64,000 nucleotides of DNA from Candidatus Saelkia tenebricola. GTDB taxonomy: Bacteria; Omnitrophota; Gorgyraeia; Kaelpiales; Kaelpiaceae. Position 1 is the stretch's first letter; each line of letters begins with the position of its first letter. The DNA lies in the NCBI GenBank assembly GCA_030765145.1, contig JAVCDA010000010.1:49087-113086 (forward strand). Reading direction: 5' to 3'. Position numbers and translations under genes: made by a program. The notes below the pieces were generated by a model. That model was not told the origin of the DNA and did no database searches. It was given only the letters and a program-made list of their open reading frames with translations. Positions 1 to 4,635 of this stretch are shown in pieces.

Positions 1-337
1 CCCCCGGGGGAATAGCGCCAATAGAAGAAGATAAATTAAAAACACATTCAAAGAATGAATTAAAATATTAAATATCCTATACCCATAAACATGTGTCTCG
101 TTCAAAAGATAATTCAAATTGTAACTGGCCATTGTTAAAGGCCTGAATACACCCTTTACGTCTTGAGAAAGATACCCTTTGAAGTAAAAAGGAATAAATT
201 TAAAATCACGAATTAAATAATTTTCTGTTATCAAATAATGGTCGCTAAAAACAAACCTATTATTTAAAGAATTGGAATAGGCAAGAAAACCCACCAGAAG
301 GAATAAAAATAATACTATCAGGTTCTTCCTTTTCATA
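1..337 (-). CDS. Partial (N-terminal ~112 aa) third PMT/TMTC-like membrane protein. It runs off the window start and is not in the ORF track.
   Basis: Reverse-strand ATG at 335-337 (ttttCATatc) gives MKRKNLIVLFLFLLVGFLAYSNSLNNRFVFSDHYLITENYLIRDF..YGYRIFNILIHSLNVFLIYLL. The same N-terminal architecture (TM helix, DD/DH loop, H-L-xN-IxxH-xxN motif) is seen in the two downstream paralogs. Confidence 0.45.
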
Positions 338-393
338 TCAGGAATATGATACCACTGATAAAGAATATTTTTAAGCTCGGATAAACTTAAAGC

Positions 394-1824
394 TTATTTC
401 AACACATTCAGCCTTTTTTCAGCTTCTTTAAAACCGGGATTTAATCTTAAAGATTCTTGATAAAAGATAATGGCATTTTTAAAATCATTTTTCTTTTCTT
501 TTACCAACCCCAGCGCAAAAAATACTGAATAATCACCGGGATTAAAAATCAACACTTTCTTAAACTCCTCTTCTGCAAGGGAATATTTTTCTTGATTAAA
601 GTAAATCTTCCCGAGATTAAAATGTGCCTTAAAGTTAGTGGGGGTAAACCTTATTTCTTTATTGTAGAAAACAACCGGATCACTCCACTCCCCATTGCGT
701 TTAAAAGTTAAAAACGAATATGCAATTACAAGAGAAAATATAAGCATTATACTCCCTCGCGCAGGAAAACTAATCTTTTCAAAGAACCTCCCCAAAACCG
801 GTATAAGAAAAATCAATAACCCTGGCAAACCTAAATATATCCAGTGTTCAGCAAAAGGCGCGTTGAGAGGATAAATCACATTGGAAATAAAGAGAAAATT
901 TATTGAATACCAAACTAAACCGAACAGCTGAGCTTTATTATTCCTGACCAAATAACCTACTCCTCCTACAACTAACAGCAGTATAAATGGAACAATAAAT
1001 TTCAAACTCCAAAAAGAATTAACAAAATCAAATACATAAGAAAGTCTTAAATTTAAGGGCAGAAAAACTACTCCTAAATATTTAAAAAATAGTAGAGGTG
1101 CCATCAGAAACCTCTTTGGCCAGGGAATAGGACATGCCATAAAATTAGAAAGTGCTATACTTCTTATGGCAACATATGCTAAAGAAATAAAGATAAACAG
1201 CCAAATAACTTTAGAAATTTTTCTTTTAAAAACTATCTCATAGCTGATAAATATTAAAGGGGAAAAAATAACAATTTCTTTGGATAAAATTCCTAAGGCG
1301 AACAATAATAAAGCCGGGAATATTAGTAATGATTTTCGGTATTCTAAAAATCGAATATAAAATAATAACGAAGCCAATACAAATAGTGCCCCTAACAGAT
1401 CTGCTCTACCGGAAATATAACTTACTGCTTGAGTATTTATAGGATGTATCAGAAAAAACAGAGCAATTAAAAATGGGGCTGTGTTTTTTTTTATCAAAAA
1501 AACTACTAAGAAATATAATAAAATGGCATTAAATATGTGGATTATCATATTAGTCAAATGATACCCCATAGAATAATAGCCCCAGACTTTATAATCCATC
1601 ATATAAGTTATAATCTGTAAAGGTCTAAAAGAATTTCCCATTATTTCAAGATGCAATATATCCTTGAATAAAACCGGGATATTTGAGAATGATCTTATTA
1701 ATACGTTATTACCCACAAGCACATTATCATCATAGATAAAGGGGGAATTTATAGAATTGGAATATACTAACACTCCAATTATAATTAGAAACATTACCTG
1801 AAATTTTAGCTTTTTAAAAATCAC
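394..1824 (-). CDS. Polytopic membrane protein of the PMT/TMTC-like (GT-C, GT39-like) family with C-terminal TPR repeats.
   Basis: About 11 hydrophobic segments. The first loop reads FIYDDNVLV. Motif YYSMGYHLTNMIIHIFNAILLYF is present. The C-terminal ~90 aa are TPR-like (AHFNLGKIYFNQEKYSLAEEEFKKVL..NPGDY..ALGL..KNDFKNAIIFYQESLRLNPG). Confidence 0.6.
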   Translation of the reverse strand: MIFKKLKFQVMFLIIIGVLVYSNSINSPFIYDDNVLVGNNVLIRSFSNIPVLFKDILHLEIMGNSFRPLQIITYMMDYKVWGYYSMGYHLTNMIIHIFNAILLYFLVVFLIKKNTAPFLIALFFLIHPINTQAVSYISGRADLLGALFVLASLLFYIRFLEYRKSLLIFPALLLFALGILSKEIVIFSPLIFISYEIVFKRKISKVIWLFIFISLAYVAIRSIALSNFMACPIPWPKRFLMAPLLFFKYLGVVFLPLNLRLSYVFDFVNSFWSLKFIVPFILLLVVGGVGYLVRNNKAQLFGLVWYSINFLFISNVIYPLNAPFAEHWIYLGLPGLLIFLIPVLGRFFEKISFPARGSIMLIFSLVIAYSFLTFKRNGEWSDPVVFYNKEIRFTPTNFKAHFNLGKIYFNQEKYSLAEEEFKKVLIFNPGDYSVFFALGLVKEKKNDFKNAIIFYQESLRLNPGFKEAEKRLNVLK

Positions 1825-3293
1825 TGTTTTTCCAAATTAGATTCTACTATCGCTAAGTTCAAAAGTGCAATTTCATCCTCTTTATCAATTGATAAAACTT
1901 TTCTAAACCAATTTCTTGCCTGATCATATTGACCCAGCCTTAGGAATAAAACACCTAAATTATTAGAGGATTCCGCGAGAGAAGAAAAAATATAATAATT
2001 CTGATTCTTCTGCGTTGCCAAAAAATAATGATAAATTGATTTTTGATAATCGTTATTTACGAGATAGACATACCCCAGCATCGTATGGGGCTCACAAGAC
2101 TCTCGTGAAACACGAAGTGCGCGATTAAATAAAAAACCATCATTTTTAAAATAATCCTGATATCTAAATGTTATTACTGCATATACGCCAATCATTATTA
2201 AAAATATTTTCTTAAAATGTATTTTTTTGGAAAATATATACACAACAAGCATCGTTAGCCCAAATCCGGATAGATAGAAAAACCTCTCAGCCCAAAAATG
2301 TAAAGCAGGTAATATATTTGAGATAGGCAAATAGAAACATAATATCCAACCTGTCGCTATCGTGAGGATTTTCCTCTTTTTTAAAATAGAATACAAAAAT
2401 AAACATAGAAAAAATATCCCCAGCAATACCCCCAGTAATACTTCATGATGTGTAATAATTTGATGTTTTAAAAAGGCATCTGTCACACTCAAGTTCAACG
2501 GTATAAAAGATTTAAAAATATACCTAAAAAACCCCGCTAGGGATGATAAAGAAGTTATGTAAGGAGTACCTCTGAAAAGCTCTATCCTGCTGCCAACCTG
2601 CCCTAAAATATAAATTCGGGCTAAGATATAACACGCTGCTACAGATGCATAAGGAATAAAATATTTTTTATTTCGGGGGAGGAAAAATCCAATTATAATA
2701 ATTAACAAAAAAAATGGAAAAGCAATCTCCTTGCTCATTAAAGCCAATCCATATCCGAATACAGAAATCATAAGATAAATTATTTTTTTATTCTCCTCAA
2801 ACACCAAATACATTAATAAAGATGAAAGGATGAAAAAACCTGCTAATAGATCTGCCCTTGCCCCAAGCCAAGATACTGTGGATACATTTAATGGTAAAAC
2901 TCCATATAAAAGTGCAGAAATAAAGCAAACGTTTTGAAGTATTTTTAATCTTTGCAGGATGAGATAAAACAGCACTAGATTTAAAATATGTAATAAAATA
3001 CTGCTCAAATGAAATCCCACCGAACTATCTCTATAGAGCAAATAGTCTAAAGTATAAGAAACTTTAAACAATGGCCGGTAATAATTACCATCTCCATAAG
3101 GGCGCAAGAGCGGATTGAAAAATACATCTTTCAATCCTTGAGAGTCTTTTATTATGCACTGTTTGTTTTCAATTTGAAAATGGTCCAGCCAAATAAATCC
3201 AGAATTTAAACTTCTAAAAAATACAATAAAAACAACAATAGAAATAATACCGAGATGCAACCAGGTCTTATCTTTAATAAAAAAGTTCTTCAA
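1821..3293 (-). CDS. Second PMT/TMTC-like membrane protein with C-terminal TPR repeats, a tandem paralog of the previous gene.
   Basis: Same layout: IWLDHFQIEN loop, SSVGFHLSSILLHILNLVLFYLIL, many TM segments, and a C-terminal TPR (YQKSIYHYFLA..NLGVLFLRLGQYDQARNWFRKVLSIDKEDEIALLNLAIV). The 4-nt overlap with the upstream gene suggests translational coupling. Confidence 0.6.
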   Translation of the reverse strand: MKNFFIKDKTWLHLGIISIVVFIVFFRSLNSGFIWLDHFQIENKQCIIKDSQGLKDVFFNPLLRPYGDGNYYRPLFKVSYTLDYLLYRDSSVGFHLSSILLHILNLVLFYLILQRLKILQNVCFISALLYGVLPLNVSTVSWLGARADLLAGFFILSSLLMYLVFEENKKIIYLMISVFGYGLALMSKEIAFPFFLLIIIIGFFLPRNKKYFIPYASVAACYILARIYILGQVGSRIELFRGTPYITSLSSLAGFFRYIFKSFIPLNLSVTDAFLKHQIITHHEVLLGVLLGIFFLCLFLYSILKKRKILTIATGWILCFYLPISNILPALHFWAERFFYLSGFGLTMLVVYIFSKKIHFKKIFLIMIGVYAVITFRYQDYFKNDGFLFNRALRVSRESCEPHTMLGYVYLVNNDYQKSIYHYFLATQKNQNYYIFSSLAESSNNLGVLFLRLGQYDQARNWFRKVLSIDKEDEIALLNLAIVESNLEKQ

Positions 3294-4177: not shown

Positions 4178-4242
4178 ATATAAAAAACACCGAAGGAAGA
4201 ACTTAACTGTCTTCCCTCGGATTCAAAAACAATTTATATCAA

Positions 4243-4575
4243 TTAATCACCATGACTATGACTAGCTACAACACCTGTCGCTGATGAATAAACATAATCA
4301 ATGCTATAGGGACATGCTGGCAATGCCTCAGATGCAAAGTAATTATGTTTAAAAGTGTTTTGTGTTAAACTACCAGGGAACAATGCATCCCCAGCTACTG
4401 CTGTTTTAGCATAGTAAGCTGCGATTGAGGACCTAATTGTTGCAATATTTCCATCACAAGCAGCTTGCTTAGCATTAGATTGTAAATCAACAAACTTCGG
4501 AATAGCAATTGCAGCTAAGATTGAAATAATTACGATAACCATAACCAATTCAATCAATGTAAAACCCTTCTTCAT
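4243..4575 (-). CDS. Type IVa pilin or pseudopilin (prepilin with N-terminal methylation motif).
   Basis: MKKG/FTLIELVMVIVIISILAAIAIP: a short basic leader, Gly at -1, Phe at +1, Glu at +5, a hydrophobic alpha1-N helix, and a C-terminal Cys pair (C..C) for the disulfide loop. The ORF-track start at 4602 is probably upstream of the true start. MKKG begins at 4575. Confidence 0.8.
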   Translation of the reverse strand: MKKGFTLIELVMVIVIISILAAIAIPKFVDLQSNAKQAACDGNIATIRSSIAAYYAKTAVAGDALFPGSLTQNTFKHNYFASEALPACPYSIDYVYSSATGVVASHSHGD

Positions 4576-4635
4576 CCTGCACCTCCTTTTGATAATATCC
4601 AATTTTAAAATCCAATTAACGCTTTTATTTTCTGT

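Follow-up and report, generated by a model that had tools for sequence, protein, structure and literature searches.

The metagenome-assembled genome of Candidatus Saelkia tenebricola (Omnitrophota; so named in Williams et al. 2021) includes the 64,000-nucleotide stretch of DNA that we analyzed here, referred to as the window. At its left end, a type IV pilus (T4P) prepilin gene is followed by a predicted glycosyltransferase gene and genes for large membrane proteins. An initial annotation described these as a one-strand set consisting of a classical prepilin, a membrane-anchored family 2 glycosyltransferase (GT2) and three paralogous polytopic proteins with C-terminal tetratricopeptide repeats (TPRs), and read the set as a candidate module for pilin O-glycosylation. 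All five genes, namely the prepilin gene, the GT2 gene (GT2a) and the three genes for transmembrane (TM)-TPR proteins, do lie on the minus strand throughout, where they and their putative signals are located as follows:

4636-4664, minus strand: possible sigma-70-type promoter of the pilin gene (TTGACA, 17 nt, TTTAAT)
4243-4575, minus strand: prepilin gene, 110 aa (N_methyl 9e-09; TIGR02532)
4182-4218, minus strand: stem-loop and T-run, terminator- or attenuator-like (from folding of the spacer)
3326-4177, minus strand: GT2a, 283 aa, membrane-anchored GT2 (PF00535 4e-31)
1821-3293, minus strand: TM-TPR paralog 1, group A, 490 aa, LDH in loop 1 (family hidden Markov model [HMM] 4e-118; TPR_1 1.6e-10)
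394-1824, minus strand: TM-TPR paralog 2, group B, 476 aa, DD in loop 1 (TPR_1 5e-13)
1-339, minus strand: TM-TPR paralog 3, group C, N-terminal 113 codons, SDH in loop 1 (family HMM 2e-24)

The order is tandem, running from the prepilin through GT2a to TM-TPR paralogs 1, 2 and 3, with successive gaps of 65, 32, -4 and 54 nt. Two of the three polytopic TPR paralogs are complete, but the third is cut by the window edge and present only as a 113-codon N-terminal fragment, so that its many TM helices and its TPRs would lie outside the window; the region to the left of the window is described from orthologous loci only.

The first gene is indeed a classical prepilin of the form MKKG/FTLIELV. Its open reading frame (ORF) had been listed as 4243-4602, and the true start is the ATG at 4575, which lies 6 nt behind an AAGGAGG ribosome-binding site. 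From this ATG the product consists of a leader (MKKG) and a mature protein of 106 aa beginning FTLIELV, and it is identical to the NCBI-called protein P0121. The mature pilin has two conserved Cys residues, a Ser/Thr-rich C-terminal hairpin and a conserved C-terminal HxH tail; in an alignment of the pilin family, the conserved elements are ACDGN, YYAKTA, FP, CP and a C-terminal Y-x-Y-x-S/A-x-T/S-G-V-V-x-x-H-x-H. An AlphaFold2 model (predicted local distance difference test [pLDDT] 86.8) depicts a long alpha1 (residues 7-60), a short helix, the C-terminal hairpin (95-105) and a five-residue tail. This protein is likely the major pilin and is our proposed acceptor. We speculate that Ser and Thr residues in and around the hairpin turn serve as glycosylation sites and, equally speculatively, that the HxH tail is an element recognized by TPRs.

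The pilin gene and GT2a are separated by 65 nt that fold into a stem-loop with a T-run behind it (-18.5 kcal/mol, z = -3.8). Equivalent spacers at four orthologous loci (L001, L005, L017 and L002) are unrelated in sequence and fold more strongly still (z -4.1 to -6.4). The resulting order of pilin, stem-loop and GT2a matches a described arrangement of pilin accessory genes (PMC11841053), and the stem-loop would fit a scheme in which the pilin is highly expressed and its accessory genes receive lower read-through. A scan for consensus promoters and terminators returned sites no more numerous than in shuffled sequence and missed this stem-loop, which has a loop of 9 nt. The possible pilin promoter, TTGACA-17-TTTAAT, was read by eye; the scan accepts only -10 hexamers whose second base is A, so this site went unlisted. 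A sigma-54 promoter upstream of the pilin gene was rejected because GG-N10-GC finds no convincing match there.

Among solved structures in the Protein Data Bank (PDB), the closest relatives of GT2a, over its residues 1-203, are ArnC (1e-21), Pyrococcus DPMS (6.5e-20) and GtrB (1.3e-17). ArnC, archaeal Dol-P-Man (dolichyl-phosphate-mannose) synthase and GtrB are all polyprenyl-phosphate glycosyltransferases. These relationships, together with two C-terminal hydrophobic segments (210-242 and 250-279), bear out the earlier description and support the assignment of GT2a as a predicted membrane-anchored polyprenyl-phosphate-sugar synthase. Its scores against the NCBIfam equivalogs AglJ, ArnC, PgfS and PpgS are all far under the cut-offs, and therefore no sugar can be assigned. 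A GT2a orthologue of 283-287 aa follows the pilin gene at 10 loci.

The two complete TM-TPR paralogs match the HMM of their family at 1e-118 to 1e-136, far beyond chance, with a mutual identity of only ~23-25%. An AlphaFold2 model of paralog 2, built on a 50-sequence alignment (pLDDT 93.7, predicted template modeling score [pTM] 0.93), aligns with glycosyltransferases of the GT-C fold across 314-349 residues. The structural comparison that the initial annotation had called for thus upheld a GT-C fold, but not a particular affinity to the PMT family, as STT3B, ALG12 and ArnT score as high as PMT or higher. Model helices and the hydropathy profile indicate ~11 TM helices. The positively charged N terminus suggests that the acidic loop 1, the KE loop, the AEHW loop and the TPR domain share the periplasmic side. 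The family consensus comprises F-x-W-D-D, F-Y-R-P-L, S-G-R-A-D, S-K/R-E and A-E-H-W-L-Y-L-P-S, to which correspond FIYDD, SFRPL, GRAD, SKE and AEHWIY in paralog 2, and LDH in loop 1, YYRPL, ARAD, SKE and AERFFY in paralog 1. Taken together, the model and the motifs of paralog 2 give it a GT-C fold and a TMTC-like layout; they do not establish it as a member of GT105 (TMTC), and its domain matches speak against GT39 (PMT). The gene for this paralog is used here with a GTG start; NCBI-called P0001 (466 aa) begins 10 codons after it. The homologue P0002 retains the longer N terminus (MAFKKIKFQ...), suggesting that the database start of P0001 is too short.

The first-loop motif, initially given as DD/DH for the three proteins, is DD in the 476-aa paralog only; the 490-aa paralog has LDH and the fragment SDH. 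In the family, D33 of loop 1 never varies, and conservation of D32 reaches at least 90%. Loop 1 carries DD in 136 of the 149 collected members, six more being gapped there (fragments), and the only substitutions of the first Asp among the 149 are LD (four, all group A orthologues) and SD (three, all group C orthologues). LDH is kept in group A orthologues of seven other loci, L082 having LDN instead, and further loci repeat the LD/SD substitution pattern of groups A and C. Group C orthologues are proteins of 636-648 aa with TPRs at L001, L005, L082 and L084. In a neighbor-joining tree, groups A and C (~640 aa) form deep pilin-linked clades, and group B nests in the main family. The loss of the first Asp in group A and in the SDH-bearing group C implies that these proteins either work by a changed mechanism or do not catalyze transfer at all. 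None of the recovered modules is without a DD-bearing member, and on its motifs paralog 2 is the best candidate here for a catalytically active pilin glycosyltransferase.

The linkage of pilin, GT2 and GT-C/TPR genes recurs at 10 other independent loci, some of them outside pilus clusters, in agreement with the co-occurrence among relatives that the initial annotation had proposed to check. In a forward test, the closest GT-C relatives (L001, L005, L017 and L002-4) were all found behind an orthologous pilin. L001, whose GT-C protein is 63% identical to paralog 2, encodes in turn pilB, pilC, pilZ, GT2b, a divergent GT-C, the pilin, GT2a and three TM-TPR proteins, and then PMT_2, Epimerase_2 and methyltransferase proteins, a prepilin-like gene and another set of GT2, LAB_N and PMT genes; L005 and L017 share this arrangement. 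At L002-4 (45% identity), PilS/PilR-like regulators precede the pilin, a TM-TPR protein, PMT, GT2, a TM-TPR protein and GT2. A TM-TPR gene immediately follows the pilin at L002 and L087. In the reverse test, all six pilin relatives examined, at 54-74% identity, were followed within 5 kb by a GT2a of 286-287 aa and by GT-C/TPR genes matching the family HMM. The flanks of the module are at times unrelated to pili: a ribosomal protein gene lies upstream at L085, and transglutaminase and phosphatase genes lie upstream at L087. The module is absent beside two pilin relatives (47% and 55% identity) in which both the Cys pair and the C-terminal HxH are missing. Per module, the TM-TPR genes number three to four and the GT2 genes two, with additional GT-C genes of the PMT_2 type, and Epimerase_2, GT4 and methyltransferase genes close some of them.

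Downstream of the part of L001 that matches this window, at 16592-20869, the prepilin-like gene is accompanied by small ORFs, possibly minor pilins, and followed by the second GT2, an 89-aa LAB_N membrane protein and a PMT/PMT_2 GT-C protein. The LAB_N protein is a possible flippase, and the set looks like a complete three-component system.

Since the linkage recurs and the module is missing beside pilins that lack the Cys pair and HxH, comparative genomics lends good support to a module for pilin glycosylation. We consider it fairly probable that the genes constitute a lipid-linked, 'three-component-like' O-glycosylation module of the T4P locus that is dedicated to the pilin. In the mechanism that we propose, GT2a would act at the cytoplasmic face, transferring sugar from a nucleotide sugar to polyprenyl phosphate. 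The lipid-linked monosaccharide would then be flipped across the membrane, and a periplasmic GT-C/TPR enzyme, for which the product of 394-1824 is the best candidate, would move the sugar to Ser or Thr of the pilin prior to assembly, the TPR domain recognizing the acceptor. The LDH and SDH paralogs could supply extra sugars or sites by modified chemistry, or act as non-catalytic partners. The initial suggestion that the paralogs differ in specificity is accordingly plausible, but two of the three lineages conservatively lack the first catalytic Asp. The pilin would be expressed strongly, and the accessory genes at a lower level via read-through of the stem-loop.

The neighboring genes of the window place this module within a T4P locus:

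4774-6609, plus strand: polytopic GT-C-like protein, 611 aa, no TPR (PMT_2 6.5e-05, below cut-off)
6601-7278, minus strand: GT2b, 225 aa, no TM segment (PF00535 3e-34)
7304-7963, minus strand: PilZ-domain protein (PilZ 8e-09)
7960-9183, minus strand: PilC (T2SSF 1e-53)
9186-11006, minus strand: PilB (T2SSE 1.5e-139)
11008-11385, minus strand: receiver domain
11385-12893, minus strand: TPR protein
12898-14280, minus strand: secretin (Secretin 6e-48)

GT2b is the last gene of the pilB-pilC-pilZ operon, a position kept at L001, L017 and L082-L084, and is Dpm1/GtrB/PpgS-like (PDB relatives GtrB, 5e-16, and DPMS, 1.5e-14). The 611-aa GT-C gene stands between GT2b and the pilin gene, convergent with the former and divergent from the latter; its product has a weak match to the LIC_10190 family (NCBIfam), and orthologues with PMT or DUF8201 matches are kept in position at L001, L017 and L082-L085. 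With the pilus genes, GT2b and the 611-aa GT-C gene all upstream, the pilin gene ends the T4P cluster and has a GT2 and GT-C pair on either side.

Upstream of the secretin gene, three minus-strand ORFs of 152, 205 and 560 aa (14285-17024) have no Pfam match and, judged by position, may encode divergent PilM/N/O/P-like alignment proteins. Farther along, 29154-50692 (minus strand) is occupied by a sugar-modification cluster comprising a DegT-type aminotransferase, three B12-binding radical SAM and two radical SAM/SPASM proteins, three NAD epimerase/dehydratases, two GT2a-related GT2 proteins, a short-chain dehydrogenase/reductase (SDR), two split transketolase-like pairs and an E1 dehydrogenase component. 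This cluster could be the source of a sugar of an unusual kind (C-methylated, branched or amino). Genes for radical SAM proteins, B12-binding or of the SPASM type, also come directly after the glycosylation genes at L002 (19910-21355) and L085 (9064-10572), and at L089 (8029-12230) they replace the pilin-linked glycosylation genes, which hints at further glycan or pilin modification. Neither tRNA nor Rfam features were found in the window. A plasmid tblastn search gave a single match, archaeal and irrelevant. GC skew is negative across the whole window (cumulative -6.46) and nearly all genes are on the minus strand, consistent with a window on a single replichore.

The known system closest to the proposed module is that of TfpW from Pseudomonas aeruginosa Pa5196/PA7 (group IV pilins), a likeness of architecture and gene position as published. 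TfpW is a GT-C protein with 11 TM helices in which a DDx in periplasmic loop 1 is essential and TPRs form a periplasmic domain at the C terminus; its gene comes directly after pilA, and the enzyme takes its sugar from a monosaccharide linked to polyprenyl phosphate (bioRxiv 10.1101/2020.04.19.049825, PMC11194591). Its best template is ArnT, and it both polymerizes and transfers lipid-linked D-arabinofuranose (D-Araf) (bioRxiv 10.1101/2020.04.19.049825); a PNAS commentary groups it with GtrABC-like three-component systems (PMC11194591). The initial annotation had regarded the Saelkia route as mechanistically distinct from that of TfpW, a distinction that falls away because the published enzyme itself combines GT-C, DDx and TPR features with a polyprenyl-phosphate sugar. 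The ~11-TM GT-C architecture, ArnT-like structure, C-terminal periplasmic TPRs and location downstream of the major pilin gene are shared, suggesting that the system described here works like TfpW; a loop-1 DD is present in paralog 2, with LDH and SDH in its place in paralogs 1 and 3. There are also differences. GT2a separates the pilin from the TM-TPR genes, unlike the pilA-tfpW arrangement, and the donor presumably comes from a GtrB/ArnC-type GT2 and a nucleotide sugar rather than from the D-arabinofuranose pathway that starts from phosphoribosyl pyrophosphate (PRPP); a Pfam search of all genes in 1-20 kb revealed no PRPP/DprE-type D-arabinofuranose pathway genes. At least three GT-C/TPR paralogs take the place of one, a second GT2 and GT-C pair across the pilin is found only here, and the host belongs to the Omnitrophota rather than the Proteobacteria. 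New relative to TfpW are thus the predicted GtrB-type donor synthase, the lack of the first Asp as a conserved trait of two paralog lineages and the second GT2 and GT-C pair.

The eukaryotic protein O-mannosyltransferases TMTC1-4 (GT105) likewise join an 11-TM GT-C domain to non-cytoplasmic TPRs, with a loop-1 DD that paralog 2 shares. Their motifs M1 (DD), M2 (xYRP), M3 (RxD), M4 (KE) and M7 (E(R/H)xxY) (PMC7801869) were matched to ours by inspection and not by alignment; DUF1736 is unmatched, the DW motif is not evident, and the proposed acceptor is a pilin instead of a cadherin. GtrABC and ArnC/ArnT pair a GT2 polyprenyl-phosphate-sugar synthase with C-terminal TM helices and a GT-C enzyme acting in the periplasm, as is proposed here, whereas our module lacks a GtrA-like gene, its GT-C proteins carry TPRs and, in place of O-antigen or lipid A, a protein is proposed as the acceptor. 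In comparison with actinobacterial Ppm1/Pmt and fungal PMT (GT39), the Saelkia proteins have TPRs in place of MIR, leave PF02366 unmatched and reach PMT_2 only below threshold. PglL/PilO/TfpO also O-glycosylate pilins, and tfpO likewise follows pilA, but these are Wzy_C-family enzymes with an undecaprenyl-pyrophosphate-oligosaccharide donor. Searches with Pfam models gave no match to PF02366 (PMT), MIR or Wzy_C in the membrane proteins of the module, and an identity as O-antigen ligases of the Wzy_C family was rejected on this ground. We also rejected glycosylation of the GT41 OGT type, as with Synechococcus Ogt, which is a cytoplasmic GT-B enzyme. The O-mannosylation initially envisaged gained no specific support, and an assignment of mannose as the sugar was rejected for want of evidence. 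Pfam PMT and TMTC_DUF1736 are unmatched at threshold. A literature search found no paper linking TMTC-like proteins to pilins or dealing with T4P glycosyltransferases of Omnitrophota.

Several observations weigh against a pilin-dedicated module. The profile check foreseen at the outset was strong for TPRs but weak for the catalytic domain: paralog 2 scores 21.9 bits against Pfam PMT_2, below the cut-off of 26.1, and paralog 1 lacks even that match. TMTC_DUF1736 (PF08409) hits none of the window proteins at E <= 0.01 and only one of 13 homologues, at E 0.089. Searched against PDB sequences, a TM-only profile yielded nothing at E <= 10, and the full-length profile yielded TPR proteins only. The first Asp, absent from paralogs 1 and 3, is the residue conserved in all related GT-C enzymes (PMC7801869), and no GtrA-like flippase gene is present among the ORFs of window positions 1-7400. 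The family is also vast, at 127,218 clusters (E <= 1e-3, 50%-identity library). A T4P gene lies within 10 kb at 19 of 76 family loci and at none of the other 57, and members in Omnitrophota are mostly singletons or tandem arrays of up to eight genes that are pilin-free. Adjacency to the pilin could instead reflect co-regulated modification of another envelope target.

The 57 unlinked loci indicate that pilin linkage is a property of particular clades and not of the family, and led us to reject the notion that the whole family is dedicated to pilins. A genome scan recovered 485 relatives, nearly all from Omnitrophota; in the tree, T4P-linked members make up several basal clades, and the crown arrays are unlinked. 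In other Omnitrophota genomes, L078 (503-14336) and L009/L054 (CP070807.1, ~1.445-1.478 Mb) hold tandem arrays of seven to eight or more GT-C/TPR paralogs that have neither a pilin nor a GT2 in their vicinity. Full-length TMTC-like proteins are present in many uncharacterized prokaryotes (PMC7801869).

The strongest competing explanation, which we judge unlikely, is that the GT2 and GT-C/TPR proteins perform general envelope glycosylation of periplasmic or surface proteins, of a polysaccharide or of a glycan resembling lipopolysaccharide (LPS), with the pilin neither a specific nor the sole substrate. The distance of most Omnitrophota family members from pilin and T4P genes, the arrays of up to eight and the sheer number of clusters all favor it, as do the sugar-modification cluster at 29-51 kb of the window and the suitability of TPR domains for many acceptors. 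Such a role fits poorly with the behavior of the pilin-linked lineages themselves, however: groups A, B and C adjoin a pilin at every locus recovered, and the module accompanies the pilin into unrelated flanks (L085 and L087) and is not found beside pilin relatives without the conserved C-terminal features. The slot that it occupies, directly after the pilin and behind the stem-loop, is moreover that of known pilin accessory genes.

Returning to a module dedicated to the pilin, the glycan could be an oligomer or polymer, with the GT-C paralogs acting in turn to start it and to lengthen it, a scheme that has been proposed for TfpW, itself multifunctional. The many TM-TPR, PMT_2-type GT-C and GT2 genes per module would accord with this, and so would the ancient and conserved paralog lineages, the dual polymerizing and transferring activity of TfpW toward D-Araf, and the Epimerase_2, GT4 and methyltransferase genes at the end of some modules. 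This proposal, which we rate as improbable, refines pilin glycosylation rather than opposing it, and nothing here separates the two. A role of the TM-TPR proteins as non-enzymatic pilus biogenesis factors (a TPR scaffold, a pilin chaperone or a secretin pilotin-like protein) with a GT-C domain that is no longer catalytic is the least credible alternative: weak TPR-driven NCBIfam matches to PilW, Tgl and GltE, the missing first Asp of DD in paralogs 1 and 3 and the roughly one-quarter of family loci within 10 kb of pilB, pilC or secretin genes speak for it, but DD persists in paralog 2 and in the bulk of the family, the equivalents of other donor- and metal-binding motifs are strongly conserved, and the dedicated GT2 is always co-located in the module, which counts against a scaffold that would need no sugar synthase.

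A bolder extension of pilin-dedicated glycosylation, which we regard as doubtful, is that prokaryotic TMTC-like GT-C/TPR proteins are substrate-dedicated O-glycosyltransferases, acting here as a hetero-oligomer of DD and LDH/SDH subunits whose TPRs bind the S/T-G-V-V-x-x-H-x-H tail of the pilin. If true, it would define, for the first time, a substrate and a recognition rule for the very large bacterial TMTC-like family, and would provide an evolutionary link to the TMTC O-mannosylation of eukaryotes.

The Omnitrophota, largely uncultivated, are ultra-small bacteria that may depend on hosts, and their pili are probably central to attachment. The general picture of lipid-linked periplasmic glycosylation would stay unchanged by our proposal, and the module is small enough to be reconstituted in a heterologous host, needing a pilin, a single GT2 and between one and three GT-C genes. 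That two lineages have conservatively lost the first Asp raises the prospect of pseudo-enzyme or altered-mechanism subunits in GT-C complexes. If confirmed, the module would extend pilin glycosylation by GT-C/TPR proteins past a few Proteobacteria into the Omnitrophota, and would give a concrete substrate to the huge TMTC-like family, the prokaryotic members of which are uncharacterized (PMC7801869).

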